This document shows positions 36,330-60,757 of a DNA stretch of 64,000 nt, one piece after another (within the stretch, counting starts at the first letter, position 1; the number at the start of each line of letters is the position of its first letter). A program made the position numbers and the translations under genes. Location of the stretch: NCBI GenBank assembly GCA_965116495.1, contig OZ220696.1, positions 2,272,001-2,336,000 of the forward strand. Direction: 5' to 3'. Origin of the DNA: Gammaproteobacteria bacterium. Its GTDB lineage: Bacteria; Pseudomonadota; Gammaproteobacteria; Eutrophobiales; Eutrophobiaceae. The notes below the pieces were generated by a model. It saw only the letters and a program-made list of their open reading frames with translations, was not told where the DNA came from and did no database searches.

Positions 36330-36599
36330 ATGACACTGCAAGAACTCGGAAAGCAGATTTCTGTCCTGCGTAAAGAAACAGGCCTGAGCCAAGATGAAAT
36401 ATGCCGGGTTGCGGGGATCTCACGCACCACGCTAAGCCGGCTTGAAAACAGTGAATTGTCTGAGTTGGGTTATAATAAGACGCTCCGCATCATGTCCTGC
36501 CTCAATAAGGATCTGGCGGTGGTGAACAAAACGCCAATGCCGACGCTGGATGATCTTGTGCGTCAGCGGCATGAAGACCTCAATCAGTCAGCTTCATAG
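36330..36599 (+). CDS. XRE HTH antitoxin (HipB-like)
   Basis: LSQDEICRVAGISRTTLSRLEN, PTLDDL; immediately upstream of a HipA gene. Confidence 0.85.
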   Translation: MTLQELGKQISVLRKETGLSQDEICRVAGISRTTLSRLENSELSELGYNKTLRIMSCLNKDLAVVNKTPMPTLDDLVRQRHEDLNQSAS

Positions 36600-36617
36600 A
36601 AACCTTGATGAAAGGGC

Positions 36618-42271: not shown

Positions 42272-42523
42272 ATGGACGCAATCAGTTACACTGCTGCTCG
42301 GGCAAACCTGGCAAAGACGATGGAAAAAGTATGTGATGACCATACGCCCGTCATCATTACGCGCAAGCGGGAAGCGGCTGTGGTAATGCTATCCCTGGAC
42401 GATTACCAGGCCCTGGAAGAAACCGCTTACCTGCAGCGCTCCCCAGCCAATGCCAGGCGTCTGTTGGACTCCATTGCCGAACTTGAAGCCGGAAAAGGCA
42501 CGGAACGGGAACTTATTGAATGA
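42272..42523 (+). CDS. yefM: YefM/Phd antitoxin
   Basis: MDAISYTAARANLAKTM, LEETAYL.RSPANARRL. Confidence 0.95.
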   Translation: MDAISYTAARANLAKTMEKVCDDHTPVIITRKREAAVVMLSLDDYQALEETAYLQRSPANARRLLDSIAELEAGKGTERELIE

Positions 42524-42777
42524 AAACCACGTTTTCTTCCACGGCGTGGGAGAATTATCTTTACTGGCAGAAGACAGACAAAGCAACCCTGAAACGAATC
42601 AATACATTAATCAAGGCAATTCAGCGCGATCCCTTCTCAGGAATTGGAAAACCGGAATCACTGAGACATAACCTGACAGGCTATTGGTCCAGACGGATCA
42701 ATGACGAGCATAGAATCGTTTACAAGGTTGCCGATAATCACTTGTATATCGCTCAACTCAAGTACCATTACGAGTAG
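42520..42777 (+). CDS. yoeB: YoeB/Txe toxin
   Basis: YLYWQKTD, GIGKPE.L, GYWSRRINDEHRIVY; ATGA overlap with yefM. Confidence 0.95.
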   Translation: MKTTFSSTAWENYLYWQKTDKATLKRINTLIKAIQRDPFSGIGKPESLRHNLTGYWSRRINDEHRIVYKVADNHLYIAQLKYHYE

Positions 42778-44086: not shown

Positions 44087-45247
44087 TCATCGCCCGGCAG
44101 CGTCCCGCAACTGCTCCACCTTGTCCGTTTTCTCCCAGGTGAAGTCCGCTTCCTCGCGGCCGAAATGGCCGTAGGCCGCGGTCTGCCTGTAGATGGGCCG
44201 CAACAGGTCCAGGTCCCGGATGATGGCCTTGGGGCGTAAATCAAACGTGTCCTGCACCAGGGCTTCGAGCCGGGTTTCCGGGATGACGCCGGTGCCAAAG
44301 GTGTTGACCATCAGGCTGACCGGCCTGGCGACGCCGATGGCGTAGGCGATCTGGATCTCGCACCTGTCGGCCAGGCCGGCGGCGACGATGTGCTTGGCGA
44401 CGTAACGCGCTGCGTACGCGGCGGAACGGTCCACCTTGGACGGGTCCTTGCCGGAAAATGCGCCGCCGCCGTGGTGGGCGATGCCGCCGTAGGTATCCAC
44501 GATGATCTTCCTGCCGGTGAGACCGGTATCGCCTACCGGACCGCCGATGACAAAGCGTCCGGTGGGATTGACCAGGTAGCGTGTTTTGGCGGAGAGCATA
44601 TCCGCGGGCAGGACCGGTTTGATGATTTCCTCGATAACCCCTTCGGTCACATTGTCATGGCTGACACCGGCATCGTGCTGGGTGGACAGGACGACCGTAT
44701 CGACTGCGACGGGCTTGCCGTCCTCGTATAACACGCTGACCTGGGATTTCGCATCGGGCCGCAACCAGGGCAGCCTGCCGGCTTTTCTCACCTCGGCCTG
44801 TTTCTTCACCAGCCGGTGCGAGTAGGTAATGGGGAACGGCATCAGCACGTCGGTCTCGTTGCAGGCATAGCCGAACATGAGGCCCTGGTCACCGGCGCCC
44901 TGATCCAGGTCAAGCCCCTCTCCCTCGTTCACGCCCCGGGCGATATCCGGCGACTGCTTGTCAATCGACAGCAGTACCGAACAGCCATCGGCGTCAAACC
45001 CCATCTCCGATGAGTCATAACCTATTTCCCTGACGGTCTGTCTGGCTATCTCCGGATAGTCGATGTTCGCCTGCGAGGTAATCTCGCCGGACAGCAACAC
45101 CATGCCTGTCGTGACCAGAGTCTCGCAGGCTACCCGCGCATGGATATCCTGTTCCAGCAATGCATCCAGAATCGAATCGGACACCTGGTCGGCGACCTTG
45201 TCCGGGTGACCTTCGGAGACGGATTCCGAGGTAAACAGGTAATTCAT
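44087..45247 (-). CDS. metK: S-adenosylmethionine synthetase
   Basis: [44 protein letters not shown]. Confidence 0.99.
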
Positions 45248-45575
45248 ACGCGGGGCTCCATAAAGATTGAATGGGCATTCTAACCAGTTCCCGGGGAGTT
45301 TTACAGAGTAACCATGTGCTTTTTTTAAGTGAGATCCAGGATAACCGCATACTATTAAAGGAAGCGTGAGGACTCTCTGAACAGTATCCAGGCCCGTCTG
45401 CTGAACCCGGAGGGGGCTGTTCCTAACACAGGGCTAACACAGGGCTGGGGGAACACTGGGGGACACTGGGGGAGTTGACTTTAATACCTTAATCTGGGAT
45501 AATACTGGCCGTTAAACACTTAGTTAAAGTAGTTTAATCCGCTTATAAAATTTTCAACTCGTGAGGAGGATAGAT

Positions 45576-45827
45576 ATGAAAAGTGGCGACGACATGCTAA
45601 GACAACTCGTTGATAAATCCGCTGCTGACGCGGCGTTCAGGCAACAACTTCTCTCTGATCCCAAGACTGCCATAACCGCTGAGTTGGGCATTACCATGCC
45701 CGAATCGATGAATGTTGTGGTACATGAAAGCGACATGCAAACTGTTCACGTTGCTTTGCCGCCGGATCCGAATATCACCGAGGAACAACTCGAAGCCGTT
45801 TCGGCCGGCCTTTGCTGCTGCTGGTAA
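45576..45827 (+). CDS. srpE: NHLP/proteusin RiPP precursor, core LCCCW
   Basis: AGGAGG RBS; NHLP leader (D.AFRQQLLSDPK, VHE, LPP, EEQLEAVSAG); 5-residue core LCCCW-stop. Confidence 0.92.
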   Translation: MKSGDDMLRQLVDKSAADAAFRQQLLSDPKTAITAELGITMPESMNVVVHESDMQTVHVALPPDPNITEEQLEAVSAGLCCCW

Positions 45828-45897: not shown

Positions 45898-45931
45898 GCC
45901 CTCGTCCCTTTCAGGGGCGGGGGTTTTGTTT
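45898..45931 (+). terminator. Probable intrinsic terminator after the precursor gene
   Basis: GCCCTCGTCCCT-TTC-AGGGGCGGGGG followed by TTTTGTTT. Confidence 0.6.
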
Positions 45932-46162: not shown

Positions 46163-47281
46163 TTACTGGTAAACCGCCCCGGAAAGCACCATAAATACAT
46201 AGGCCTTGGCTTTTCGAAGCTGATTGTCTGATATGACCAGCTTCACATGGTGAATGCCCCGCAGCATAATATAACGCCCGGACTTCGCAAAAAGCGGTGT
46301 CGGTTTTGAGACCCAGCCGGCTAGCGCCTTGATCTTGTCGGAAAACACAATATCCTCATGGTCCAGGGCTTCCAGGAAGGGTGCCCAATCGGTCAAACCG
46401 TCAAGCCAATAGCGCGAATCCTTGGTATATCTCTGCTTTACAATGAGTGTGAGACCAAGCGTCGGACCAATTCCATCCTCCTGCACGTCAATATTCAATC
46501 CAATCCTGACAATGTTCACGCGGTCTGTGAAGCGTGAAATCACTGAATCGACGGCTGTGATCTGACCGGGCCAACCCGTATCTTCCAGGTATCGGGCTAC
46601 CTCCTGCTTCGATTTGAAGCCCATGACAGCGAGGCGAATTGCCCGAGAGCGGGACGGAAATACTCCAAACGAGTCCATGCGCGTATCTTCCGGCTGCGCA
46701 AGGTAAGCTTGTTGGAGGTACTTCCGTTCTGCGTCGTTAATCTCCCAGCCTACGCAGGAAGCGAGTGCGTCACTCACCATAACGACGTCATCTTCCTGAC
46801 CGTTGGCGCCGGTAATCGGGCGTTCGCCGGGCCGCAAGAACATTCCGGGGAAAGAACCTTGTCCCTCCCGCGCAGATCCTATGTCATATTCCAGCATAAG
46901 TTTCTGACCGACAATTTCACGCAGGGGTGAGTTTTCGGTTTCCATTTGCTCGCAGGCCCGCACAATTGCGCCGGCGGTCTCATCTGTGTTATCGGTCCGT
47001 GCGCACTCCCGGAAAAACTCTGCCGACCTGGTTCCACCGGCCAGGGAAGCGCCGAAATCCGCCTCCGGTTTGGGCGAATGCAACGGCAGTTCGAAGCCGA
47101 ATGGCAAAGCGGCCATTGTAATCGGAAGTTTTCCGGCGCAGTCGAGTATGCATTCCCATTCAGATGCCCCGATAAGAACCGGCGAAATCCTGTCCCGAAA
47201 GTGCCCAAGCAAATCACCCATGGTGCCGCCTTCCTCGGCGAGACGTTCCTGGGTAAGAATCACAGCTTCGTCAATATTCAT
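46163..47281 (-). CDS. RiPP-cluster protein of unknown function, possibly ABBA prenyltransferase-like
   Basis: 372 aa, 4-bp overlap with the upstream gene; FGFELPL, LMLEYD, HHVKLV, AKAY motifs. Fold call is tentative. Confidence 0.6.
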   Translation of the reverse strand: MNIDEAVILTQERLAEEGGTMGDLLGHFRDRISPVLIGASEWECILDCAGKLPITMAALPFGFELPLHSPKPEADFGASLAGGTRSAEFFRECARTDNTDETAGAIVRACEQMETENSPLREIVGQKLMLEYDIGSAREGQGSFPGMFLRPGERPITGANGQEDDVVMVSDALASCVGWEINDAERKYLQQAYLAQPEDTRMDSFGVFPSRSRAIRLAVMGFKSKQEVARYLEDTGWPGQITAVDSVISRFTDRVNIVRIGLNIDVQEDGIGPTLGLTLIVKQRYTKDSRYWLDGLTDWAPFLEALDHEDIVFSDKIKALAGWVSKPTPLFAKSGRYIMLRGIHHVKLVISDNQLRKAKAYVFMVLSGAVYQ

Positions 47282-48588
47282 ATGGTCTTCTCCAGCAGGA
47301 ATTCAACCAGACGCTCCAGGGCTTCGATGCAAAATGCGGAAGTCACCGATTCGGAACCATGCCCAATCTGCCCTACCAGACCCCACTTCAACTCCTGATC
47401 GCCAAACGCGAGAAACTCCGGCCAACTGCCGTCCTCACGTTGCGAGTTCAGGAACCTTTTCACCTGGTGTTCTGCGTCGATGCTTTGCAGGCTTCCAATA
47501 TTGTAGAGAGCAGACACTGCCTGGGCAGTCTGGAGGATATTGCCGAATTCCCCCTTCCCGTCGCGCAGGCCGAGGATACCATCCGCAAGCGCCGGGCGTA
47601 ACCGGTCAAGAGCGGACGGCACGCGCAGCAGGGCGCGGGTGATTGCATAGTAGATTGAGATCGAATCAGGATACCACTTGGACGTTCCATCCAGGCTGTC
47701 TTCAATGATCAAACCTTCCAGCCATTGCCGGGCTTCCCTGGTTTCCGGACGCTCACCGAGATAGGCAATGACATTCGCATTAACCACAGGATCGGCTTCG
47801 ATACGAAAAGTAGATACTACATCAGGTTCATCATCCGCGAGTATCCAGGTCTGGAAAAGACCTTTTTCGTCGCGATTTGCCAGAATTCCCGGGACATTCC
47901 TTTCCAGCAATATCCAGGGGTGATTCCCGATGACAAGTGAGCAGACTGTGGAACTATCGAGGTCCTGCGGCAGATGTCGGTAGTAGCGCCATAATCCGGG
48001 ATATTCCATGGTATCGACAAGATACGCCCTGGTGGTGGCACAAATGGCTTTAGCCTTCGGTTCATCACAGCCTTCCAGGGCAAGTACACAGAATGCCGAA
48101 ATAAACGGGGGTCTTTCGAAATGCCTTGGGATGTTCGGGTCGGCTATATTGAAACGGATGCAGTGCCAGGCCCCGTTTTCATCGATCCCGGATTCCAGGA
48201 AATCGAGACCGCGACGGATGCTTTCCCTGCATGCATCGGCAAGCGTCCCGGGCGTGGCGTTGGATAACAAGGCGCCTGCGCCACCCGGTTCGGGAGGGCG
48301 GACAGGCGGCGCCGGATCATAAAGTGTCTTGCGCAGGAACTCGAGTGATTGTGAGCCGGTTCTCGCCTCCTGCCGTTCAGCCGCGCTGAATTTGCTGCGC
48401 GGCGGAAGCGCCAGATGCGCAACGGAAACGGTATCTTCGTGCACGCGAATCTCATGATCTTCGTCCAAGGTCACACCAAGTTCCTCTTCGATGGTTTCTT
48501 TGGGTTTCTCAAGCAAACGATTGCGAAGATCATCGTCTTCGACGGCTCTTGATATGAGGTAATTAATTGTGTGAACAGGATACTTCAC
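47278..48588 (-). CDS. NHLP-leader-like domain fused to a class II terpene cyclase/prenyltransferase-like helical domain
   Basis: N-terminus RAVEDDDLRNRLLEKPK..IEEELG..VHED..HLALPP; then GLWRYY..LPQDLDSST, DPVVNANV and a QW motif QREDGSW. Confidence 0.75.
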   Translation of the reverse strand: MKYPVHTINYLISRAVEDDDLRNRLLEKPKETIEEELGVTLDEDHEIRVHEDTVSVAHLALPPRSKFSAAERQEARTGSQSLEFLRKTLYDPAPPVRPPEPGGAGALLSNATPGTLADACRESIRRGLDFLESGIDENGAWHCIRFNIADPNIPRHFERPPFISAFCVLALEGCDEPKAKAICATTRAYLVDTMEYPGLWRYYRHLPQDLDSSTVCSLVIGNHPWILLERNVPGILANRDEKGLFQTWILADDEPDVVSTFRIEADPVVNANVIAYLGERPETREARQWLEGLIIEDSLDGTSKWYPDSISIYYAITRALLRVPSALDRLRPALADGILGLRDGKGEFGNILQTAQAVSALYNIGSLQSIDAEHQVKRFLNSQREDGSWPEFLAFGDQELKWGLVGQIGHGSESVTSAFCIEALERLVEFLLEKTI

Positions 48589-48595
48589 TTCCGCT

Positions 48596-51544
48596 TCAGG
48601 CGACCTGCCTCTTTACCAGTTCTTTGAATACTCCTTCCTCCTCCATGAGTTCGTTGAAGGATCCGCTCTGCACAACTTTTCCGGCCTGCATCACAAAGAT
48701 TCGATCAGCCTGTTGCAATGAGGACAGGCGGTGGGCGATAACGATCCGGGTCGAGGTGAGGAGCGCCAGGTTCTGCATGACCTCGGCCTGGTTTTCGTTA
48801 TCGAGCCAGTTGGTTGCCTCGTCAAGCAGCATGACCCGCGGGCTGGCGAGCAGTGAACGGGCGATGGTGACGCGCTGGCTCTCGCCACCCGAAAGGACGG
48901 CGCCGCTGGACCCGACCATGGTCATCATGCCCATGGGCATCGCCTTGATTTCCTTTTCTATTCCGGCGGCACGGGCCGTCTGCCACACTTCCTCTGTTGT
49001 CGTCGGCTCGTGGTGCGCGACGATATTGTCCCAAACATCCTGGGGATGGAGACGCACTGACTGCGGCACCGAGCCAACTTTCCGGCGCACTTGCTTCAGG
49101 TTCAGGTGCCTCAGGTCACGCCCGTCATAATAAACCGCGCCGGCAGTTGGCGAATCGATGCCGAGGGCAAGCCGGAACAAGGTACTCTTGCCGGCGCCGG
49201 ACTCGCCGGCGATCGCGATAAATTCGCCGGGTCGCGCGCGAATAGTGACATCGTCGAGGATCAACGGGCCGTCGGGATCGTAGCGAAAGGAAATACGGTC
49301 GAACAGGACTTCGCCGCCCAGACGTTCAACCGGCTCACCTTCAACGGCTGCTTCAGGAACTGTGGCGAGCAGCGGGCGCATCTGGTCGAACGCCGGCAGC
49401 ATGGCGGCAATAGCGCCGAAGGACTCGCCAAGGCGGGCGATTGCGGACTGGAAAGCGATGAAGACAACGTAAACGACGAGAAAATCGCCGACAGGAACGT
49501 TGCGGTCACCCACCGCGGCCACTGCGAAAAGCAATGCCCCGCCGGCGAGAAAGGGGAGCGCGGCAGCGAATGCCCGCGAGTGCCCCTCAAGTGCGCCCAG
49601 TTCGATTTCTGCGCGTTTCTGTTCGCGATAATCCCGGGCCCAGATGGCGAATGCCGACCCTTCCGCATTTTCCACACGCAGCTTGGCGATGCCTCCCACG
49701 ATCTGGAACAGCCGGCCGGATACACGACGTACAGCGCTGATCATCCGCCCGTACGGTGCAACCTGGCGCAACCCAATGGCGACGGTGACCAGCAGGGAAA
49801 CCAGGCTGAAGCCAAGGGCGATGACCCCGAGGGTGGCATCGTAGAAGAAGATGACGCCAAAAACCGGCAACAGGAAAATGATCGACAGCAGGCTGTCGGC
49901 GATGACTCCCTGCAAGCCGTCGCGAAGATTCTGGAATGTCATCCCCGACATGGCCAGGTCGCCGGCCGGATAGCGGTGCAGAATGCTTGACGGTAGGCGC
50001 ATGAGGCGGTCCCAGAAGGCAGCTTCGACCCTTGATGCCGAACGCCCCTCGAGCCGCATCAGCGCCGATCCCTGCAGCAGGTGCAGCAGTGCGCCGAGCA
50101 GGCCGAACGCCGCCAACGTCACGGCCACGGCATACAGCGCGCCGGCGCTTCCCCCCCCGCCCCCGATATGATTCGCAACGAAACCAAGCGCAACTGCCGG
50201 CAGCAGTTTGACCAGGCCGCCCGGAAGCCCGGCCAGCACCAGCCGCAGTAGGTCCGCGGCCGTTCCTTGCATGGCGATCCCCAGCAGGTCTGCCGGTTTT
50301 ACGGGTGCCGACGGCAATGGCCGGTAGAACACCCAGGCTTCGTCCTTCAGCGCCTCAGCACGAGCCGCCGTAACCCGAACGCTGCGCTTGGTGACCGGAT
50401 CAACTTCCCGGTAGCGTCCGAACATTCCCGGTATCAGTGCGACCGGCTGGTCGTCCCCGGCGCGGAATGCCAGTAGTGCGTTGCTGTCACTGCGCCACCA
50501 GTTGCCCGCGGCCTCGAAGCGCACGCGCCGGGCGCGTACCCCTGACGAATCAAGCACGTCTACGAGGCGGATCGGTGAATCCGAAGGTCGGGAGCGCGCT
50601 GGAATCCTGAAATCGATGCCTTCATGACGGCCGACGATTTGCAAGGCATCCGCCAGCACCGTGTCCTCGACGCTGGCCTCCCGGTCGATCGGCAGGTCAT
50701 AGATATTGAAAAGCCGCTGCCGGGCAGCTTGTTCGGCCGTGCGGCGGCTGGTTGTCCGCTCGCGCTCGAGATTCGCATCATCGACCACGGCCAGTCGGCG
50801 ATTAAGGCGTTCCAGGTTAAAGGCAAGCGCGTGAAAGGAGGCGAGCGCCGGCAGCAGCATGCCTTGCTGGGCCAGTGTTTCGGTTGATTTGCCGGAAACT
50901 GTCGCCTCGTCGAACAAGGTGAGCCAGTTCGTCCGCGTCAGTGGTATCAACGCTTCGCGCGAGCCGCCTGTCTCGGCAAGTTGCGCCGGGTCGACCATAT
51001 CCATGAACAGGCTTGCTCCGAGGGACGGTTCGGACACCCATACCACGCCGCGTCGCACGGACAGCGTACAAGGGCCCAGTGACTGCGTCAGACCGGGTTC
51101 GGCCAGCGCAGTCGGTCGCGGCAGGTGGCTGACGAAACGCGAAAGTGTGTCAGTCATGTCGGTGAGCCAGGTATCGGCCTGTTGCGCCAGTTCTGCCGGA
51201 TGAACCTCGGACAGCAGGGATGCCGGCAGCCGTTTCAGAAGGGTGCCCGGCAACCCCTTGGCGATCAGGCTGAGCGTGGTGACTTTGCCATTGTCGTCCT
51301 GTTCGTCCGCTACGACACCCGGCAACAACCTGCCCGATTCGCAACGCAGCAGGTGCTGCGGCGCCGCCTGCTCTACCCCGTCCCTGAATTCGACCAGGAA
51401 CAGATCGACGGCACCCTGGTCAATGAACCAGACATTGTCCGCATCGTCGAGCGTTACCGGCAGGTTGCCGGCGCAAGGCACGGATGTGCCGGAGTGGGCG
51501 GCAAGCCGGCTTATTGATGCGTGTTCCGGCATGGCGTCCTGCAT
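48596..51544 (-). CDS. NHLP bacteriocin export ABC transporter, permease/ATPase subunit
   Basis: Long N-terminal region, TMD (AAFWDRLMRLP), GESGAGKST, LSGGE, LDEAT. Confidence 0.92.
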   Translation of the reverse strand: MQDAMPEHASISRLAAHSGTSVPCAGNLPVTLDDADNVWFIDQGAVDLFLVEFRDGVEQAAPQHLLRCESGRLLPGVVADEQDDNGKVTTLSLIAKGLPGTLLKRLPASLLSEVHPAELAQQADTWLTDMTDTLSRFVSHLPRPTALAEPGLTQSLGPCTLSVRRGVVWVSEPSLGASLFMDMVDPAQLAETGGSREALIPLTRTNWLTLFDEATVSGKSTETLAQQGMLLPALASFHALAFNLERLNRRLAVVDDANLERERTTSRRTAEQAARQRLFNIYDLPIDREASVEDTVLADALQIVGRHEGIDFRIPARSRPSDSPIRLVDVLDSSGVRARRVRFEAAGNWWRSDSNALLAFRAGDDQPVALIPGMFGRYREVDPVTKRSVRVTAARAEALKDEAWVFYRPLPSAPVKPADLLGIAMQGTAADLLRLVLAGLPGGLVKLLPAVALGFVANHIGGGGGSAGALYAVAVTLAAFGLLGALLHLLQGSALMRLEGRSASRVEAAFWDRLMRLPSSILHRYPAGDLAMSGMTFQNLRDGLQGVIADSLLSIIFLLPVFGVIFFYDATLGVIALGFSLVSLLVTVAIGLRQVAPYGRMISAVRRVSGRLFQIVGGIAKLRVENAEGSAFAIWARDYREQKRAEIELGALEGHSRAFAAALPFLAGGALLFAVAAVGDRNVPVGDFLVVYVVFIAFQSAIARLGESFGAIAAMLPAFDQMRPLLATVPEAAVEGEPVERLGGEVLFDRISFRYDPDGPLILDDVTIRARPGEFIAIAGESGAGKSTLFRLALGIDSPTAGAVYYDGRDLRHLNLKQVRRKVGSVPQSVRLHPQDVWDNIVAHHEPTTTEEVWQTARAAGIEKEIKAMPMGMMTMVGSSGAVLSGGESQRVTIARSLLASPRVMLLDEATNWLDNENQAEVMQNLALLTSTRIVIAHRLSSLQQADRIFVMQAGKVVQSGSFNELMEEEGVFKELVKRQVA

Positions 51545-53754
51545 CAGCCTGATTTGACCAGTTTGTAATACATGCCGGCCTGGTCCGCAATCAACTCGTC
51601 GTGGGTGCCGCGCTGCACTTCGGCGCCCTTGTCGAGTACTATGATCTCATCACAATCCCGCACCGTGCTCAGCCGGTGCGCCACGATCAGGCAGGTGACA
51701 CCGCGACGCCGTAAGGCATCATCCACATATTCCTCCGTGGCGGCATCGAGTGCGCTGGTCGCCTCGTCCAGAATGAGCACTGTCGGATTGCCCACCAGCC
51801 CGCGGGCGATTTCCAGCCGTTGTCGCTGGCCGCCGCTGAAATTCGCCCCGCCTTCCTCGACGAGGGTCGCGTATCCATGCGGCCTGATCAGGATTTCCTC
51901 ATGGATGCAGGCATCCCGTGTTGCGGCAATGATGACTTCATCCGGAACGGCCGGGTTCCACAAGGTGATATTGTCTCGCACGGACGCGGAAAACAGCACG
52001 GCCTCCTGGTCCACCATGGAAATGGACCGCCGCAGTACTTCCTCGGGGATCTCATCCCGCGGATGGCCATCTAGCAGTATTTCACCAGACCATGGCTGAC
52101 TGATTCCCGAAACGAGACGCGCCAGGGTCGACTTGCCGGAACCGCTTGGACCGACCACGGCAACCCGCTGCCCCGGTTTGATCACGAGGTTGAAGTCCTT
52201 GATCAAGGGCGGTCGGCTCTTGTTGTAACCGAAGGTGACGTTGCGCAATTCGAGACTGCCCGCAAGCTGTAGCCGGCCGTTGAACGTGGGGATTGCCTGC
52301 GCTTCCGGACTGCGGCGGCTGAACACGGGGTCTTCAGCGGTCCTGGAGATGTCATCCAGCCGTTGCAAATCGGTTTCGAGCGCCTGGCGTTTGTCGGCGA
52401 ACTCCAGAAACCGCCCAACCGGCGCCAGAAACATCTCTGCCAGTATGTAGAACCCGACCAGCGCCCCCAGGGTCATTGCTCCGGTCATGACCAGGCTCCC
52501 CCCAAACCCCAGGATTGCCGCGGCGCGAAATGCCGCGATCAGGCCGGGAAGCGCGCTATTGACGGCGCCCAGTTCGGAGTAGCGTTGGCGCGCATGAAGT
52601 TCGCTTGCCTGCTGGCCGCTCCAGCGCGAAAAAAAACGATCGTCCGACCCTGTCATGCGCAGGTTATCCGCATGACTCAACATCTGCATACCAACGCCGA
52701 TCAGCAATCCCTGCTCGCGCCTCATTGCCTGGCTTCGAACTTCCCTGAGCGCGCTCAGGAAGCGGGCCAGCACTCCGTGCAGGAGAGCCAGCAACAGCAC
52801 GATCAGCGTTAGCAGGACATCGTAGGCCAACATCGCGACAAGCAACACTGCGCTCATGGCCATGTCTACAATGAGCACAAGAAACTGCTCCGTCAGGTTT
52901 TTCGCGATGCGATCGATGGACGAGACCCGGTCGGTGAGGTCGCCGGCCAGCCTGTGTTCAAAAAACTCCACCGGCAGCCGCAGCAGCCGCGACAGGCCCC
53001 GGTTGTAGCCGATCACCGAAACCCGGACCGCGAGCCGCTTGAGGAAACGGTGCTTGAGCAAGGTCAGGACGTATACCAGGATGCCGCCGCCAATCAAGGC
53101 GGCCACCAATCCGCCCCAGGGTCCGTGGTTTTCCAGAACGTCGTCTACGAAAACACCGAGAGTTGCGGGAACGACAAGCGCCAGCAACGTCAACATGAGG
53201 CCACAGGCAATCACCCCGGTAAGCACGCCCCACGATTCGGCGAGCAAGGCGCCCAGTTGCCTGACTAGGTTTGGCCGGTCACCGCCGGGCTTGAAATCGG
53301 GACCGCACTTGAAGCGAAGCATAATCCCGCTGTAGCCCTTGGTAAACTCTTCTGCGCTAACCCTGCGTTTCCCTGTGGCAGGGTCATTCAGGTAGAAACT
53401 TTGGCCATCGAACCCTTCGAGCACAACGAAATGGCTGAATTGCCAGAATAAAATCAGCGGAAGCTCCACCCGTTTCAGCTGATCGGCGCGCAGGCTGAGC
53501 CCTTTGCATTCAAGACCATAGTACCTGGCGGCGCGCAGGATGCTTGCCGCACTGCTGCCGTCACGGCTCACTTCACATTTATCGCGTAATTCAGTCAACG
53601 GCGCCCAGCGCCCGAAATAAGCCAGGACGATCCCGAGACAGGCGGCGCCACATTCCGACGCATGCATCTGCAACAGAACCGGTGTGTTGACCTTCTTTTT
53701 CAAAACGTCCGAAGACGCCTTATCCCTGGCTCCCTTGGGGGCGCTCGATGGCAT
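51544..53754 (-). CDS. NHLP bacteriocin export ABC transporter with C39 peptidase
   Basis: QMHASECGAACL, HFVV, NDPA, GPSGSGKST, FSGGQRQR, LDEATS. Confidence 0.95.
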   Translation of the reverse strand: MPSSAPKGARDKASSDVLKKKVNTPVLLQMHASECGAACLGIVLAYFGRWAPLTELRDKCEVSRDGSSAASILRAARYYGLECKGLSLRADQLKRVELPLILFWQFSHFVVLEGFDGQSFYLNDPATGKRRVSAEEFTKGYSGIMLRFKCGPDFKPGGDRPNLVRQLGALLAESWGVLTGVIACGLMLTLLALVVPATLGVFVDDVLENHGPWGGLVAALIGGGILVYVLTLLKHRFLKRLAVRVSVIGYNRGLSRLLRLPVEFFEHRLAGDLTDRVSSIDRIAKNLTEQFLVLIVDMAMSAVLLVAMLAYDVLLTLIVLLLALLHGVLARFLSALREVRSQAMRREQGLLIGVGMQMLSHADNLRMTGSDDRFFSRWSGQQASELHARQRYSELGAVNSALPGLIAAFRAAAILGFGGSLVMTGAMTLGALVGFYILAEMFLAPVGRFLEFADKRQALETDLQRLDDISRTAEDPVFSRRSPEAQAIPTFNGRLQLAGSLELRNVTFGYNKSRPPLIKDFNLVIKPGQRVAVVGPSGSGKSTLARLVSGISQPWSGEILLDGHPRDEIPEEVLRRSISMVDQEAVLFSASVRDNITLWNPAVPDEVIIAATRDACIHEEILIRPHGYATLVEEGGANFSGGQRQRLEIARGLVGNPTVLILDEATSALDAATEEYVDDALRRRGVTCLIVAHRLSTVRDCDEIIVLDKGAEVQRGTHDELIADQAGMYYKLVKSG

Positions 53755-53755
53755 C

Positions 53756-54307
53756 TTATAGTCGCGTCGTAAGGAACAGTTCTATCGGAGATTGCCTGCC
53801 AAGCCCGATAACCAGCCGGCATTCCCTGCTGGTGAGGGAGTCCGGCTCAAGACCTTCTTCGAGAACGATATCGACACGGTGCAGGGACTCAGGCGCCTCG
53901 GGCAGAAACGCCGACATCCCGCCGGAAATGGGTATAGCGGAAATTGCCTTGACTGCACCGTCCAGTGTGCCTGCTTTTGCATCTTTCGTGTCCAACTCAA
54001 CCATTACCGGCATCCCGGCCTCGATTGACGGCGCGGTGCTGCTCTGCATCCAGACAAGGGCCTGCACAAGCCGGCTTCCTTCAGGTGAGGTTTCACCTTG
54101 TTCAATAAGTATGCCGTTGAACTCAATACTACGGGCTATGTTGCCGAAGAGAAGCCATGCTGAGAGTATTAACAGGAAAACGGCAATTGCCGCGACAAGC
54201 AGGCGTTCATGCGGTGTGGAAATCGTCAGCAGCCGGTCGAGTTGCTCGCGTTCTTCCTTCGCCTCAGCTACCGTATCGTGAAATGATTCAAACGGATTGT
54301 TGAACAT
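53756..54307 (-). CDS. Short NHLP secretion (HlyD-like) accessory protein
   Basis: REQLDRLLTISTP, TM helix, C-terminal SPIELF; only 183 aa. Confidence 0.75.
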   Translation of the reverse strand: MFNNPFESFHDTVAEAKEEREQLDRLLTISTPHERLLVAAIAVFLLILSAWLLFGNIARSIEFNGILIEQGETSPEGSRLVQALVWMQSSTAPSIEAGMPVMVELDTKDAKAGTLDGAVKAISAIPISGGMSAFLPEAPESLHRVDIVLEEGLEPDSLTSRECRLVIGLGRQSPIELFLTTRL

Positions 54308-54591: not shown

Positions 54592-56865
54592 TCACGCAAT
54601 TACAGGGACGGGATTCAGTTCAGCCTCCCCGGTGGGGCAATCCCGCCAGCCCATCTCAACCGGTACGTCATATAGGCGTCCCGGTGCGAAGCGTTCCCAG
54701 AAGTGACGCAGGCCCGGCACGATCACGCGCGCCACGGGCATACCGATGTCAGGCCGGGTCTGGTCGAGCACCAACAATTCCATCCCCCTCACTTCGACCA
54801 ACCCACGGCACCATTCCACATCGTCTCTCAGGTCTTCCGTATCCGGAACCGAATAATCGGAACTCTGGCTCAACCTGGCATCGCCTGCAGGCGCGAGATG
54901 GGGGTGGTCGGCCAGTTTGCCGTTCTTCCACCACCACAGACACATCGGATCATCGACCCCGTACCCGCTTTGAGCATTGCCCGGGCGAGGGACCCAGGTG
55001 AGGCACTGGTTCAATTCACACACGGCCCGCAGCGCCGCAATCCGGGGGTCGGCGTGTGCGCCTGCGCCATAGATGATGTCTTCGGCCACGCCATCGTTGC
55101 TGCGGGACAGTGCAACAAAGGCAGGAATTCCAAGGTCGCCGGTAAGGTCCAGCAGCCACATTTCGCGATTGTATTGATGATAATAACCTGGGGCAGATGC
55201 CAGGTACTCGTCAGCAAAGCTATCCAGGTCCACTCCGGGCCTTTGCAGCCGGTTGTACCACCAGATTGCGACGGCATCGCGTTCGACCAGTTCAAAAAAC
55301 CCCTGCAGAACAGCTTCTTCCAGGGTGTTCCCGGCTGCACAGCCGTTGGAGTCGGACCAAAGCCCCGAGGTTCCCCGCTGCTCCGGAGTCATTCCGTAGA
55401 GGATGGCTGTCGGTAACCAGCATTGCCGGTCCCGGGTGAGCGACCATACCGGAGACCAGTCCAGTTCATGCTCCGGGTCGAAGCGCGCCGGAACGACATT
55501 ATACGGGTGGCCGCGTGCGTTGATCTCTTGCGCATGGTCCAGTTGCCGGTCGCTGAACAACTGGACGTCGTTCGGGTGGATCGCCTCTCCATCCGCCGCT
55601 CCGGAAAAATCCGCCAGGCGCCTGCGGCAACGGATTTCATCACCGTGGAAAGCGCCGGAATAGCGCTCGACCGCTTCGCACAGCGCACTGACCTCGGATT
55701 GCTCCGCGCTGCTGCCCTTACCTGCACTCTTGCTGCGCAGGCTGCGCCGCAATGAGCTCAGGTTCTTGATTCTCAAGGCAAGATTGCTGCCCGCCCAATG
55801 TACATGCAGCCAGGAGTCTGTTCCGGGAGTTGTGCGTGAAACCCAACTGACCACTCCACTCACCGGACTGACCAGGTGCCGGTACTTTTCAAGCGTCTCC
55901 GCAGGTGTAGCCGCCCGCACTCCGCCGCTGTTGCGAAACTGTTTCGGGCTCGCCTGCAATCGCACCGGCGTCGCCGGCCGATCAGTTTTATAGAGTTCCT
56001 CGTTTCCGCAGACCGGGCATTGCGGACGGCGCATGACCCGGTGATGTTCACTTTTCATGCCGACAACATCCAGTGTGATCGCATGGTCATGCAACGGCGC
56101 CGCATCCCCAAGGACAAACCACCTGGCGATCTCAATGGCAACAGTTCCGCTGACGACATCCAATGCCAGGGGTTCGGCTACGTTCGGACGAAACGCGGCC
56201 GCCTCGCCACAGTGATTTCGCACAAAGGAATGGACCTCCTGGTGGTTTCGAATACGGTAGGAAAGGCAGGCCCAACACGGACTTTTCTGCGCAGGCCGGA
56301 ACACAGGGCCAAACAGCGGTCGTAATCCTGCAGGCCGGACCAGCACCCATGGGATGCCCGATTCCAGGTGCTCCCGGTTGACGGCGGCAAACTCATCATC
56401 AAGATAGTCGGAACCTGCGTAAATGGACAGGGACGGGCGGTTTGTACCGACTGTAATACCCATGCCCTCAAGCCGTGTCGCGAGACGGCCGTCGTCACCC
56501 TGGATTACTACCTGCGCTTCCTGCAATCGCTCTTCAACCTGGCGCGGGGATGCACCCTGCGAGGACCAGAATGCCGCCCTGCCCCGTTCCATGTCATAAT
56601 CGCCGGATACGGTGTATCCCCTGGATTCCAGGAAAGTCAGGGCTTTGCGGACATCCGTCTCCGGATGCACCCCGTCTAGCGCATCAACAATACTTTCCCG
56701 GGAACGGCAACCGTCAAGCAACGGCAGGAGATCCCCATATACCTGCCCATGCAGGAGCGTGTTGAATGTTTCGGAAACCAGGAGCACCTGCCCGGCGCCG
56801 ATAGAGCGGTGCTCAAGGTGCGGCGCAAGCACCGGCCGTTCAATCTGGTGCGGATTAACAGCCAA
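54592..56865 (-). CDS. srpC: Fused E1-like/YcaO cyclodehydratase (azoline-forming)
   Basis: RRE-like N-terminus, PCWACL...CPVCG, SAGKG, EAVERY, SNGCAAGNTLEEA, ELVERDA, GRLY, C-terminal PVP. Confidence 0.95.
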   Translation of the reverse strand: MAVNPHQIERPVLAPHLEHRSIGAGQVLLVSETFNTLLHGQVYGDLLPLLDGCRSRESIVDALDGVHPETDVRKALTFLESRGYTVSGDYDMERGRAAFWSSQGASPRQVEERLQEAQVVIQGDDGRLATRLEGMGITVGTNRPSLSIYAGSDYLDDEFAAVNREHLESGIPWVLVRPAGLRPLFGPVFRPAQKSPCWACLSYRIRNHQEVHSFVRNHCGEAAAFRPNVAEPLALDVVSGTVAIEIARWFVLGDAAPLHDHAITLDVVGMKSEHHRVMRRPQCPVCGNEELYKTDRPATPVRLQASPKQFRNSGGVRAATPAETLEKYRHLVSPVSGVVSWVSRTTPGTDSWLHVHWAGSNLALRIKNLSSLRRSLRSKSAGKGSSAEQSEVSALCEAVERYSGAFHGDEIRCRRRLADFSGAADGEAIHPNDVQLFSDRQLDHAQEINARGHPYNVVPARFDPEHELDWSPVWSLTRDRQCWLPTAILYGMTPEQRGTSGLWSDSNGCAAGNTLEEAVLQGFFELVERDAVAIWWYNRLQRPGVDLDSFADEYLASAPGYYHQYNREMWLLDLTGDLGIPAFVALSRSNDGVAEDIIYGAGAHADPRIAALRAVCELNQCLTWVPRPGNAQSGYGVDDPMCLWWWKNGKLADHPHLAPAGDARLSQSSDYSVPDTEDLRDDVEWCRGLVEVRGMELLVLDQTRPDIGMPVARVIVPGLRHFWERFAPGRLYDVPVEMGWRDCPTGEAELNPVPVIA

Positions 56866-57151
56866 GACCCTGTGACATCTGTGTATAACTGGTTAGAGGA
56901 ACCCCGCACATCCGGTCCTGGTCCGACTTGTCTTCGGCCGGCAAACTTGTCAGATGTTGCAAATGGGGAACCAGGCTCGGCCAGCTGCCTTCGCCCACCC
57001 CTATGGTCGGGATGTGGGAGTCGTATATGTGGTGCAGCTCATGATCCGGGTCAGGGTGAAGGCGAGTCACGGCAGCGGCCGCCAAAGACCCTGCGGTTCC
57101 CCGGCCAATCACTGCGATGTTCTTTAACGACTTGCTGCCAGGATTTATCAA
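56855..57151 (-). pseudogene. srpI: Internally deleted flavin-dependent (Trp-type) halogenase
   Basis: IAVIGRGTAG and IPTIGVGEG N-terminal motifs; only 98 codons with no catalytic middle; stop overlaps the YcaO start. Confidence 0.82.
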
Positions 57152-57367: not shown

Positions 57368-58312
57368 ATGAGCAATTCAGCCGACAAGTGGTTATACTAT
57401 GGTGACCATCAGGACACCCCAACCTTGAACACCACTCGCGAAATACCTCTTTCCGAGCATGAACGCTCGGTAATTGAACACTACGACAAAATGACCAGGG
57501 TGTTCTATCTCCAGTGGAGTTCCGAGCATTTTCATTTCGGTGTATTCAAGCCCGGGGAACGCCCCAGGCACAACGAGACTCCGAAAGAATCGGACGGACA
57601 TGCAAGAGCACTGGAGCGCATGGTGGAAGTCATAGTTGCCCCAGCCGGGATTGAGGGACACCATCATGTGGTGGACGCCGGGTGCGGAGTGGGCGGAACT
57701 GCCTTTCACCTGGGCAGGACGCGGGACTGCAAGGTCACGGGCGTGAACCTGAGCAAGACGCAACTGGAGATTGCCAGAAGTAAGGCAGTTAATGCCGGCC
57801 TGGGTGATCGGATAGACTTTAAGTACGCGAACTGTTCCCGGAGTCTGCCGTTCGCAGATGGCTCCGTGGACGTGGTTGTCAATATCGAAAGCGCCCGTCA
57901 CTACAGTGACCGAAGAACATTTCTCCACGAGGTATACAGGATCCTGAAACCGGGAGGAAGCATTGTGGCTTCAGACTGGGTGGTGCATGACGTAATACCG
58001 GACAGCCAGCACAAACGTTACATTCAACCGTTATGCGAGGACTGGATGCTGTATAACCTGGAGTCCCAGTCCTCGTACACCCGGTTGCTGCAGGAAGCGG
58101 GTCTGGAAGTGATTGAATTTGAGGGATTCAACGGAATGGAGTTTGACAACCTGCATCTCCTCACAAACACCTACCAGTCCCTGGGACTGCTGCGAACCGG
58201 TTACATGAAGTCGCCTGTTTTCGCCAAACTGATGACTCAGCTGGAAAGATTGTGTGTTGCCTGGCGACACAGTTACCTGGGCATCAAACGCTACTGCGCC
58301 GTGAAAGGTTAG
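57368..58312 (+). CDS. Class I SAM-dependent methyltransferase (tocopherol/sterol-MT-like)
   Basis: HYD...HFHFG, VVDAGCGVGG, LPFADGSVD, RILKPGG. Confidence 0.9.
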   Translation: MSNSADKWLYYGDHQDTPTLNTTREIPLSEHERSVIEHYDKMTRVFYLQWSSEHFHFGVFKPGERPRHNETPKESDGHARALERMVEVIVAPAGIEGHHHVVDAGCGVGGTAFHLGRTRDCKVTGVNLSKTQLEIARSKAVNAGLGDRIDFKYANCSRSLPFADGSVDVVVNIESARHYSDRRTFLHEVYRILKPGGSIVASDWVVHDVIPDSQHKRYIQPLCEDWMLYNLESQSSYTRLLQEAGLEVIEFEGFNGMEFDNLHLLTNTYQSLGLLRTGYMKSPVFAKLMTQLERLCVAWRHSYLGIKRYCAVKG

Positions 58313-58339: not shown

Positions 58340-60757
58340 TCAGGCATTGAAGAGTGCGTCGATGTCGGTAGCGGCGCGTGTTGCCGTTACTTTAATCGCG
58401 GCGCTCAGTGCATCGAAGTCGTCTGTTCCGCAGCTTCTGGCAATGACTGTCCTGGCCATCGGCCAGGTGGCATTATCCACGTTGTTATCTTCTCCCAGCA
58501 AGCGCAGGATGCCGCGCAGGTTGCGCCACATTCTTGCCGCCTCAGCCAACCGTTGCGCGCAATCGTCAGGTATCACCTCACCCTCGCCGGCGCTCTGGAA
58601 TACGGAAACCGTACCTGCGGCAATAACCTCCGGCGCCGTTGCAGCATGGGTCACAGTCAGATATGCGGCAGCGCGTTCTACCTCCCGGAGACCGCCGCGC
58701 ATATTCTCGAATGATTGCAGTCCGGCCTCCGGCGTGCCCTCCCCTGCCTGACGCAATTCATTCAGCAACGCATCACGAGCGGCGCCATTGGCCAGGATTT
58801 CAAGGCGCGTATCCTCAAACCGTTTTCCCAGCCCGGCATCCCCTGATGTAAAAACACAGCGCGACCGTAAGAGTTCCAGCAACTCTCCTGTTGAGGAGTT
58901 GCTGTAATGGTGTTCCGAAAAGTCAGCGAGAGAACGGACAATTGTCTCAGCCCTGCCCGGCAACATCGGCTGCAACAGCAGGTTGTCCCGTGACAGGGCG
59001 CGCAACGCGTCGAGAGAGCGCTCGCTCAATGTCCTGTAATAATCGGGTGAGCCACTGCCGTCATAAAGGAACATGATGCCAAGCCCGGCGCCCAGCGTCG
59101 CTTCTCCACTTGCAATCTCTCCCAGAACCACTGCCGCCACACCGCCTTCGAGCCGCCGCTGGGTAAAATCCTCCACCGCAGCCGAGAGAACACCGGCGAT
59201 CGAGGCCTCAGCAATGTTGGACAGCGCCGTCCCCGCTTCAACCGGTGACAGGTTGCCGCGCAATGTGTGCATGGCAACCTGCAGGACCTTGTCGTTCGAC
59301 CAGTTGCGCATGATCTCTACCGCATCTTTCGTGTCCTGCACCGGGATATCTGCAACCTGCTCCTTCATTTCTTCAGCAGTGAATTCCAACGTCCAGTACA
59401 CGCGCGTCAGACCGCGTCGAGCAATTAATTCAAACTCGGGACTCGGCCCGAATCCGTCCGGCAGGTCAAGATCGGTGAATTCCCTGTCCTGAAGGATGTC
59501 GAGCAACGCCGGGGTACGGTTTATCCATTCGGAAAGCCGTGGCGATGCTGCCATGATCGCGGAAATTGTATCGAACATATCCGGACGCGCGTCGAATGCA
59601 GGGCTGTCGTAAACGTTCCAGTCCTTGACCTCCGGATAATAACGCTGCCTCCACTTGTCGACCAACGGGTCCATCGTCTCGAACCAGCGGCGGGGGGACA
59701 TCGCCAGGCCGCCCATTTTGCCGTAGGGCCCGGGCAGTTGCGGCGATTGATCCTCACCCCAGTGCTGTAACAGCGGATAAGGCCGGCTTGCAGCGGCATG
59801 GTGGTCGGCATGGCGCTGCGCGTTGTAATAGATCCAGTTGAAAAACCTGTAGTCGCTGCTCCAGGAATGTTGCGGCTGGGGTCGCTCGAAGCGGCCGTTG
59901 GGAAGGCGGATACGCCGTAATCCGTAATGCTGGACATAGTTGATGATCTTCATTGACAGGACCGAACTGGCGCTGAACATCAGGAATGCCAGGATTCCCC
60001 AGATACCGCCGAACCAGTATCCGAGGGCATACCAGAACGTAACCATGAGGAAATAACGCCAGAACGGATTGGTGTAATGCCAGACCGGGAGGTGGCGGCG
60101 CGCCAGCCTGTCGCGCTCGAAACGCCAGGCTACGACGAGACTGTTCGCCACGTCCCGGGGGAAATATTCCCAAAAGCTCTGCCCCTTGCGCGCCGAGCCG
60201 AGATCTGCAGGCGTGGCGACCAGGGGGTGATGTATATAGACATGCTCCGTGGCGTAGTGCGGGTAGGTGACCGAAGCCAGCAGGAACTCGCCGAACCTGC
60301 GCTCCCATTCATAGCGCTTATGTACCAGCTCATGACCGATAATGAACACCATCTGGGACGCCATGCCGAGAGCAAATATCATCAGCACGGCCTCCCACAC
60401 GGCCAGGTGGCCGCCAATAAAAATCTGCCAGAGTACGAATACGAGGACCACCGGCCACAGTACGGCCCACATCCATACAGCCAGGTTGTATACGTACAAC
60501 TGGCTGTCACGGGTACCCCACGGATCCATGTTGCGTTCTTCCAGGCCTAAATGGAGATCGAGCCTGTTCTCAAGCCAGACAAACAGGAACGGCCCCATGA
60601 TCCACCAGCCCCCGTAAAGCGCTGCACAAATCACCAACGGGAAAATCAACAGGAGCAGGTAATGCGGGAGCGCATTCAGGACCGACGGCTGGACAAACTC
60701 CTGCCCGCCGACGGTTTCGGCGCTCGTGCCACCAGGGTCCGCGCTATACTCTGCCAT
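58340..60757 (-). CDS. AlkB-like membrane di-iron oxygenase fused to a degenerate GlnE adenylyltransferase domain
   Basis: His boxes HELVH, EHVYIHH..VATP.D, NYVQHYGL, QRHADHH. C-terminal half has GlnE-like ALSNIAEA, VVLG..GE....G.G..FLYD and RGGLREVE. Confidence 0.85.
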   Translation of the reverse strand: MAEYSADPGGTSAETVGGQEFVQPSVLNALPHYLLLLIFPLVICAALYGGWWIMGPFLFVWLENRLDLHLGLEERNMDPWGTRDSQLYVYNLAVWMWAVLWPVVLVFVLWQIFIGGHLAVWEAVLMIFALGMASQMVFIIGHELVHKRYEWERRFGEFLLASVTYPHYATEHVYIHHPLVATPADLGSARKGQSFWEYFPRDVANSLVVAWRFERDRLARRHLPVWHYTNPFWRYFLMVTFWYALGYWFGGIWGILAFLMFSASSVLSMKIINYVQHYGLRRIRLPNGRFERPQPQHSWSSDYRFFNWIYYNAQRHADHHAAASRPYPLLQHWGEDQSPQLPGPYGKMGGLAMSPRRWFETMDPLVDKWRQRYYPEVKDWNVYDSPAFDARPDMFDTISAIMAASPRLSEWINRTPALLDILQDREFTDLDLPDGFGPSPEFELIARRGLTRVYWTLEFTAEEMKEQVADIPVQDTKDAVEIMRNWSNDKVLQVAMHTLRGNLSPVEAGTALSNIAEASIAGVLSAAVEDFTQRRLEGGVAAVVLGEIASGEATLGAGLGIMFLYDGSGSPDYYRTLSERSLDALRALSRDNLLLQPMLPGRAETIVRSLADFSEHHYSNSSTGELLELLRSRCVFTSGDAGLGKRFEDTRLEILANGAARDALLNELRQAGEGTPEAGLQSFENMRGGLREVERAAAYLTVTHAATAPEVIAAGTVSVFQSAGEGEVIPDDCAQRLAEAARMWRNLRGILRLLGEDNNVDNATWPMARTVIARSCGTDDFDALSAAIKVTATRAATDIDALFNA

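Follow-up and report, generated by a model that had tools for sequence, protein, structure and literature searches.

A predicted class II terpene cyclase with a fused NHLP-like leader domain in srp-type peptide gene clusters

The fusion gene and its cyclase domain

The window analysed here is a stretch of 64,000 nucleotides from a Gammaproteobacteria bacterium (assembly GCA_965116495.1, contig OZ220696.1, positions 2,272,001 to 2,336,000), and coordinates below are positions in this window unless another sequence is named. It carries a gene cluster for a ribosomally synthesized peptide with post-translational modifications (RiPP), in which one open reading frame (ORF) of 436 aa (47278..48588, minus strand, GTG start; hereafter the fusion) joins an NHLP-like domain to the beta domain of a class II terpene cyclase. 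Four parts can be distinguished on the minus strand: the NHLP-like domain or leader copy (residues 1–78; 48355..48588), which is in gapless register with the leader of the precursor peptide; a conserved segment (residues 79–97; 48298..48354), which occupies the position of the core peptide and contains a predicted helix (residues 79–88) and a Pro motif; a variable linker (residues 98–115; 48244..48297); and a predicted monodomain class II terpene cyclase with an alpha/alpha barrel (residues 116–428; 47305..48243). Mean pairwise identity is 0.77 over residues 79–97, 0.33 over the linker and 0.76 over the catalytic domain. A Pro-rich linker had originally been predicted to follow the leader copy; a variable linker does exist, but the conserved residues 79–97 intervene.

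Residues 1–78 align with the precursor (45561..45827, plus strand) over 24 identities in 78 positions without gaps (E 5e-13), and the true precursor scores 48.9 bits compared to 23.5 for the best of 1000 shuffled precursors. The NHLP profile TIGR03793 matches residues 10–66 (E 8.2e-10, 38.4 bits, under its cut-off of 50.9) and gives the true precursor a score of 65.9. A profile of the fusion family also finds the NHLP structure 8tb1 (E 5.7e-7) and the nitrile hydratase alpha subunit (E 3e-10). Homology of the N terminus to NHLP leaders, as read by the original prediction from the parallel between the two sequences, is virtually certain on these grounds, and the motifs PQDLDS (residues 207–212), QREDGSW (383–389) and RTG/S (76–79) lie where that prediction had placed them.

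The fusion is widespread. A word search gave 1101 homologues among 7999 candidates, the best 120 of which are 69–100% identical with 90–100% query coverage. A genome scan with the fusion returned 111 loci; the best 80 were kept, and counts over 80 loci refer to these. Their metagenome-assembled genomes are labelled as Gamma-, Alpha- and Deltaproteobacteria, Gemmatimonadota, Acidobacteria, Nitrospirales, Nitrospinota, Opitutales, Chloroflexota and others, and the ORF is 428–459 aa long in all 80. We also used 43 metagenome loci selected via the neighbouring prenyltransferase instead of the fusion, which avoids selection by the fusion itself (10 of the 43 have no precursor in view). A cyclase is present in 15 of these loci and carries the leader copy in 15 of 15 cases; the leader copy is obligatory on the srp cyclase.

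An assembly artefact or a chance read-through was ruled out by (i) contigs from three runs of one study that bridge the leader–cyclase junction (47900–48700) with no differing letters, a support that is not independent if this study is the source of the window, as it possibly is; (ii) the full-length homologues in 80 of 80 loci; and (iii) the leader copy on all 15 prenyltransferase-selected cyclases. Two separate genes were likewise rejected as the usual state: a search with residues 1–100 for shorter proteins gave 18 matches (71–219 aa) among 34 candidates, two of them labelled partial by their source. Occasional split forms of the fusion may exist. An Atlas search with residues 1–105 gave no usable match. 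We found no description of an NHLP domain fused to a cyclase in the literature searched, and the excerpts of PMC12615548, PMC9426513, PMC12537861 and PMC12426817 do not refer to one; Nguyen 2021, Hubrich 2024 and the MstE paper lay outside that search and possibly mention the gene.

The best sequence match of the cyclase among solved structures is the TC-beta domain of the drimenol synthase AsDMS (E 1.9e-8; profile E 6e-30). The AlphaFold2 model of the fusion (127-row alignment; predicted local distance difference test, pLDDT, 87.7) was searched with residues 110–436. It matches the AsDMS TC-beta domain (9mhs, 9m7f) with Z 31.6 and a root-mean-square deviation (rmsd) of 2.3 over 282 residues, and MstE (6sbe) with Z 27.6 and rmsd 3.2 over 306 residues, while non-terpene barrels reach Z 19.0 or less. 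Foldseek also finds a terpene-cyclase-type single barrel for the cyclase domain (E 4e-12). AsDMS requires D331, D333 and Y427 (PMC12365925, excerpt; sources marked in this way were available as excerpts). The first two of these catalytic residues align with D209-x-D211 (47956..47964, minus strand), which is present in all 81 fusions and in 76 and 77, respectively, of 77 leaderless rows, and the third aligns with Y306 (47671..47673, minus strand; 81/81). The equivalent of AsDMS F509 is the invariant F395, and a QW-type repeat is found at residues 383–389 (47422..47442, minus strand).

The class II cyclase fold and DxD acid motif of the original prediction are borne out by these alignments, and sequence and model together make an active class II cyclase very probable. 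The broader comparison with squalene-hopene-type and monodomain cyclases in the original prediction holds for the monodomain single barrel and not for squalene-hopene cyclase proper. The latter, a two-domain enzyme of about 630 aa, was rejected: TIGR01507 gives 16.7 bits compared to a cut-off of 431, and only one barrel is present. Most of the more distant cyclase relatives are leaderless proteins of about 300–380 aa or are fused to other enzymes.

The phosphate-binding Tyr residues of AsDMS (Y373 and Y426) are replaced by Trp in 81 of 81 fusions, with W248 also found in 71 of 77 leaderless relatives. The basic residues R145, R155, H156, R262 and K304 are invariant in the fusions, and R262 and K304 (81/81) coincide with, or fall close to, the R378 and R425 with which AsDMS binds diphosphate. 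With Tyr-to-Trp swaps on the one hand and invariant R262 and K304 on the other, the sequence does not reveal the substrate's head group.

Conservation and loss in the leader copy

We compared the leader copies of 81 fusions with the leaders of 69 precursors, with the register set on the Gly at position -1. The core is kept in the copy (i.e. F21, R22, L25, P29, E36, G38, V49-H50-E51, H58 and L61-P62-P63), and G78 is invariant (81/81) in the exact register of the precursor cleavage Gly. By contrast, the recognition code is lost: at position -7 all 69 precursors have Leu or Met and all 81 fusions have Arg; at position -4 the precursors have Ile or Val and 80 of 81 fusions Ala; and at position -2 the precursors have Ala and 72 of 81 fusions Thr. 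Position -12 in the fusions is Phe (37/81) or Leu (32/81). Within the copy, helix 1 shows the least conservation, with an identity of 0.43 compared to 0.77 in precursors, and its YcaO-facing surface (mapped via 8tb1) is conserved in precursors (e.g. Gln or His at -69) and variable in the copy. Among 63 precursors the leader loop HESDM(Q)TVH hardly varies, whereas the fused copy has a different sequence there, a pattern that makes the loop a possible binding surface. The model of the copy has predicted helices at residues 5–17, 19–27 and 29–37 (block pLDDT 85–91), while residues 41–70 reach only 54–79.

An L(X)4L motif and a double-Gly-type cleavage site followed by a short core are absent from the copy, after which 358 residues of protein come. 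The domain is an NHLP-leader homologue that fails the leader-defining motifs and is not to be filed as a precursor. Pooled pairwise ratios of nonsynonymous to synonymous substitution (dN/dS; 63 related rows, with pairs that are not independent) are 0.24 for residues 18–63, 0.13 for residues 79–97, 0.14 for the cyclase and 0.68 for the linker over all 63 rows. As judged by these ratios, the leader copy is under purifying selection. A recent duplication of the precursor within the genome was rejected as its origin: a 45-row tree places the fused domains and the precursors on either side of one branch (support 93/78, unstarred). The tree includes a random sample of 14 precursors and 14 fusions from the loci. 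Its nitrile hydratase repeats form long branches of unsure placement, so that neither a root nor a sequence of events follows from it.

The original prediction had suggested that the leader copy might be an export tag cleaved at RTG/S, in which case the C39 transporter would cut after G78 and the cyclase would be secreted. The invariance of G78 in the cleavage register and the adjoining transporter genes would fit this suggestion. Against it speak the Arg, Ala and Thr at -7, -4 and -2 and the frequent Phe at -12, given that the C39 protease LahT150 is strongly impaired by a change of Leu-7 to Lys in the leader and is also impaired by one of Leu-12 to Phe (PMC6363468). G78, moreover, may merely be a helix-break residue. 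Prenyl substrates are cytoplasmic, which is a further point against a secreted cyclase, and we regard the export tag as extremely improbable. Because the code at -7, -4 and -2 is absent, the leader copy would rather remain uncut by the C39 transporter, and the fused leader paralogue is probably uncleavable as well as conserved. The invariant substitutions suggest selection against cleavage and against competition for the modifying enzymes.

Canonical docking on the RiPP recognition element (RRE) of the YcaO protein, another role originally proposed, is also argued against. To be engaged by YcaO, an NHLP requires the two Leu residues in L(X)4L as well as a face of helix 1 (PMC12455567, excerpt); in the copy the second Leu is gone and helix 1 has drifted.

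Alternatively, the leader copy and residues 79–97 could form an intramolecular lid or a stabilising subdomain with no partner in trans. Residues 79–97 are as conserved as the catalytic domain, and helix 1 and the recognition motif have drifted, which speaks for such a role; on the other hand, the many leaderless relatives of about 300–340 aa indicate a barrel that is independent of the domain, a variable linker lies between the two parts, and the complex model described below weakly favours binding of the precursor. A lid or subdomain therefore seems very unlikely to us.

The srp cluster, its prenyltransferase and Trp-less relatives

The gene next to the fusion (46163..47281, minus strand), whose start overlaps the fusion stop by 4 nt, encodes a predicted ABBA-fold prenyltransferase of 372 aa. 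No sequence match to this protein was found in Pfam, NCBIfam or the PDB, and it was identified by fold and Atlas searches only. All 50 rows listed for its model (pLDDT 91.8) are ABBA prenyltransferases, the best being the indole prenyltransferase MpnD (Z 17.2, rmsd 4.3, 301 residues), and Foldseek is concordant. The prenyltransferase shows the tightest co-occurrence with the fusion (60 of 61 loci with full flanks), followed by the precursor (59), the second transporter (57) and YcaO (52).

Two of 150 representatives (P0233, with an hhalign probability of 93.9, and P0225) are single chains that contain homologues of both the prenyltransferase, as the N-terminal half, and the cyclase. The review PMC13290415 (excerpt) describes NctPC as an ABBA-fold prenyltransferase joined to an MstE-like cyclase domain, which geranylgeranylates Trp and cyclises afterwards. 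Given this precedent and the existence of P0233 and P0225, the srp pair can be seen as a split maturase of the NctPC type, and by analogy srp likely encodes a split prenylate-and-cyclise step. A lanthipeptide ABBA-fold prenyltransferase requires its leader in cis (PMC12715784, excerpt), which makes tailoring prior to leader cleavage reasonable in srp as well.

Several relatives of the cyclase (P0233, P0225, P0190, P0238, P0231, P0262 and P0267) are fused to ABBA-like domains or to UbiA prenyltransferases with TPR or PhyH; the helical N-terminal domain of P0238 resembles a trans-IDS-type prenyltransferase by eye. These seven proteins are candidates for further prenyltransferase–cyclase maturases.

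The precursor in the window is of the SrpE type, with an 83-aa leader and the core LCCCW. Upstream of the fusion on the minus strand are an NHLP-system ABC transporter without peptidase (48596..51544; TIGR03797-like), which is directly upstream of the fusion in 68 of 80 loci, a C39 peptidase-containing ABC transporter (51544..53754; TIGR03796, above cut-off), a short HlyD-like protein (53756..54307; a partial match to TIGR03794, with 183 aa compared to 421 model positions), a fused cyclodehydratase-YcaO of the SrpC type (54592..56865) and a 98-aa remnant of a flavin halogenase of the SrpI type (56855..57151), which has an internal in-frame deletion relative to a 425-aa frame in locus L001. A SAM-dependent methyltransferase (57368..58312, plus strand) is found close to the fusion in just 7 of 80 loci. 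By contrast, a fatty-acid-desaturase-family domain fused to a GlnE-like nucleotidyltransferase region (58340..60757, minus strand) is a conserved cluster gene, present in 42 of the 61 full-flank loci and in both cluster types (i.e. with and without a Trp-ending core, see below).

Because it combines an NHLP precursor with an LCCCW core, a YcaO cyclodehydratase and an NHLP transporter pair, the cluster is by gene content of the published srp type. The original prediction had noted neither this cluster type nor the predicted prenyltransferase next to the fusion. In srp the SrpE core is LCCCW, three thiazolines are formed by SrpC, and the terminal Trp receives a bromine at indole C6 from SrpI (PMC10858898 and PMC10286304, excerpts). 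Such clusters are widespread in sponges, with highly transcribed precursor genes and a product of unknown role (bioRxiv 10.1101/2023.06.09.544420, excerpt), and a 2025 survey lists several srp genes as 'of unknown function' (PMC11832590, excerpt). No intact SrpI-type brominase was found in the genome: the 98-aa remnant is the only tblastn match at E 1e-5 to the 425-aa frame of L001. With its halogenase reduced to a remnant and no second copy in the genome, this strain likely makes a product that is not brominated.

The precursor gene lies on the opposite strand and is convergent with the operon, with a sigma-70-like site at 45475–45503 and a strong hairpin followed by a T run at 45898–45924. 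Scans for promoters and terminators stayed at chance level (4 found compared to 2.5 and 4.1 expected). One RNA run contains 6% of the words, as short fragments that stem from related organisms and speak neither for nor against expression. A MetK gene (44087–45247, minus strand) flanks the cluster in the window and in 6 of 80 loci, all close relatives, and is probably an insertion-site neighbour. Farther left, in a stretch of lower GC content, are ORFs that by eye resemble a HipB/HipA-type pair (36330–38048, plus strand) and a YefM/YoeB-type toxin–antitoxin pair (42272–42777, plus strand). Beside some LCCCW clusters there is a second, divergent precursor with the cores MCCCGI, WCCCGN or WCCCGQ (L056:19649-19909, L067:20356-20616, L069:18594-18848, L073:18411-18665 and L086:14538-14930).

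Among the 43 prenyltransferase-selected loci, 14 (L102, L105, L107-L110, L114, L115, L117-L121 and L123) have precursor cores without Trp (LCCCGI, LCCCGF, LCCCG, LCCCT, LSCCL or RCCC). YcaO and the prenyltransferase are retained in these Trp-less sister clusters, the latter with conserved His, Lys, Arg and Tyr residues; most of the clusters also have the desaturase fusion, and one or two methyltransferases are often present. Neither a cyclase nor a halogenase was found in any of the 14 within the locus DNA examined. Among loci of at least 16 kb, the cyclase is present in 12 of 12 LCCCW loci compared to 0 of 10 Trp-less loci. The Trp-less clusters that retain the prenyltransferase offer a natural control set. 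L105 and L120 have two ABBA genes each, and HlyD-like frames of about 290–320 aa occur in Trp-less clusters.

Possible pathway and comparison with known systems

From these data as a whole we propose, tentatively and with a little less than even confidence, that the predicted cyclase closes rings in a prenyl chain that the prenyltransferase has attached to the srp precursor, with the leader copy serving as a permanent, uncleaved handle that binds the precursor. In this pathway (i) YcaO would convert the three Cys of LCCCW to thiazolines, as the literature describes for SrpC; (ii) the ABBA protein would transfer a long prenyl group, for which the C-terminal Trp is the simplest acceptor by analogy with NctPC; (iii) D211, aided by D209 and Y306, would protonate the terminal double bond and start a cation cascade, as the fold and the aligned residues suggest; (iv) the leader copy would raise the local concentration of leader-bearing substrate, possibly by leader–leader pairing such as the two leader-like repeats of nitrile hydratase alpha might form; and (v) the C39 transporter would cleave and export the precursor and spare the enzyme. 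That the product is a peptide with a cyclised isoprenoid is reasonably probable, and action of the cyclase after prenyl transfer is slightly favoured.

The opposite order would have the cyclase act first and convert free geranylgeranyl diphosphate (or farnesyl diphosphate) to a bicyclic diphosphate, which the prenyltransferase would then transfer to the peptide, with the leader copy coupling the two enzymes. An order of cyclisation and then transfer is used by the mycobacterial Rv3377c and Rv3378c. AsDMS, the closest solved structure, uses a free diphosphate, the five invariant basic residues of the fusion could bind one, and two polyprenyl synthases are encoded in the genome. The basic residues would also be explained by the C-terminal carboxylate of a peptide, however, and the phosphate-binding Tyr pair of AsDMS is replaced throughout the fusions, a point tempered by the presence of W248 in most leaderless relatives. 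Moreover, the characterised RiPP systems cyclise after transfer (PMC13290415, excerpt). We consider the cyclase-first order improbable.

Another possible explanation keeps the chemistry of the proposed pathway, but has the leader-like domain dock the cyclase, via its folded nucleus, on the prenyltransferase, on the cytosolic domains of the transporter or on YcaO, in an enzyme complex that takes the place of a covalent prenyltransferase–cyclase fusion. It is consistent with the single chains P0233 and P0225, with the position of the fusion directly after the second ABC transporter in most loci and with reports that NHLP nuclei bind some enzymes as folded surfaces (PMC12455567 and PMC12537861, excerpts), the nucleus being what the copy conserves. 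Against docking stand the degenerate YcaO-binding face of helix 1 and the broken L(X)4L; also, the fusion directly precedes the prenyltransferase in only 18 of 80 loci, and gene order in operons is weak evidence in any case. Docking on a pathway protein appears rather unlikely.

Binding of the precursor by the handle was approached by complex prediction with the whole fusion and the precursor, for which both 63-row alignments came from the same loci. The pair scored 0.48 compared to 0.00 for the best control; the runs agree in at least 82% of contacts, and the partner has a pLDDT of at least 67. Of 157 solved complexes 116 attain the passing mark, as do 2 of 215 mismatches. Recruitment of the precursor, as originally suggested, is weakly supported by this score, which does not extend to the leader copy as the contact. 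Two leader folds could plausibly pair, given that nitrile hydratase alpha has two leader-like repeats and that tandem or fused pairs are found among NHLP-Burk peptides (PMC2887384 and PMC4603692, excerpts). The genome itself (C1) has a nitrile hydratase alpha-like frame of 206 residues outside the window (minus strand, start near 2989811), which both leader profiles match twice, a sign of its internal repeat.

Several observations weigh against the proposed pathway, and in particular against its handle. Complex scores of 0.60 or less were reached by just 18 of the 157 solved complexes and by both passing mismatches, and are usually wrong unless the complex is likely beforehand; the prediction gave no interface and so does not indicate a contact site on the fusion; and the likeness to nitrile hydratase could by itself yield such a score. 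Residues 41–70 of the fusion are modelled with low pLDDT, and no leader–leader dimer is reported in the NHLP structure literature as far as its excerpts go, with 'dimer' appearing 0 times in that of PMC10858898. Concerning the chemistry, R262 and K304 near the AsDMS Arg pair also fit a free prenyl diphosphate as substrate. Retention of the prenyltransferase in the 14 Trp-less loci leaves the prenyl acceptor unsettled, and Trp is not necessarily that acceptor. The cyclase is perhaps tied to the Trp-ending clade by a single evolutionary event, in which case the link is not independent proof.

Binding of the precursor by the handle is our best guess for the leader copy, though at somewhat less than even odds. 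The complete mechanism, in which a tailoring enzyme recognises its substrate via a domesticated leader copy that pairs with the precursor leader, with the protease and RRE codes erased, and hands a prenylated peptide with thiazolines over to a class II cyclase, is doubtful as a whole. If true, leaders would here be recognised in a new way, by leader–leader pairing and not through an RRE, and the product of a cluster widespread in sponge microbiomes would be a peptide–terpenoid hybrid. For RiPP enzymology, a natural leader copy borne by an enzyme would mean one more recognition mode, and it could be turned into a portable handle in engineering. Assigning a prenyltransferase and a class II cyclase to the cluster indicates which masses to seek and defines the genes that a reconstitution would need.

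Compared with known systems, the cluster shares with published srp clusters (SrpE, SrpC and SrpI) the LCCCW NHLP precursor, the cyclodehydratase-YcaO, the transporter pair, a flavin halogenase and occurrence in genomes of many phyla. It differs in that its halogenase is an internally deleted remnant, and the published passages (PMC10858898, PMC10286304 and bioRxiv 10.1101/2023.06.09.544420, excerpts) name no cyclase or prenyltransferase. With NctPC and ChrPC it shares an ABBA-fold prenyltransferase and an MstE-like class II cyclase beside a Trp-containing precursor (PMC13290415, excerpt), a likeness by description and not by direct sequence comparison. In the window and the related loci, however, the two enzymes are separate ORFs, and the cyclase has an NHLP-like domain. 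By this analogy the fusion would work like the cyclase half of NctPC without being a fused maturase.

At the level of the enzyme, the fusion has the single alpha/alpha barrel of the AsDMS TC-beta domain and MstE and keeps the equivalents of AsDMS D331, D333, Y427 and F509. It differs in its low identity to the two (about 20% and 15%, respectively), in having an N-terminal leader copy and no HAD phosphatase domain, in the replacement of AsDMS Y373 and Y426 by Trp and of F518 by His, and in a longer conserved hairpin (residues 393–411). The leader copy shares with NHLP leaders (TIGR03793; MprE7, 8tb1) and with nitrile hydratase alpha the three N-terminal helices (predicted in the copy), the core residues, the LPP motif and the gapless register to Gly -1. 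In contrast to NHLP leaders, it has no L(X)4L, no small residue at -2, a variable helix 1 and no core peptide, in place of which a conserved helix and then an enzyme come next.

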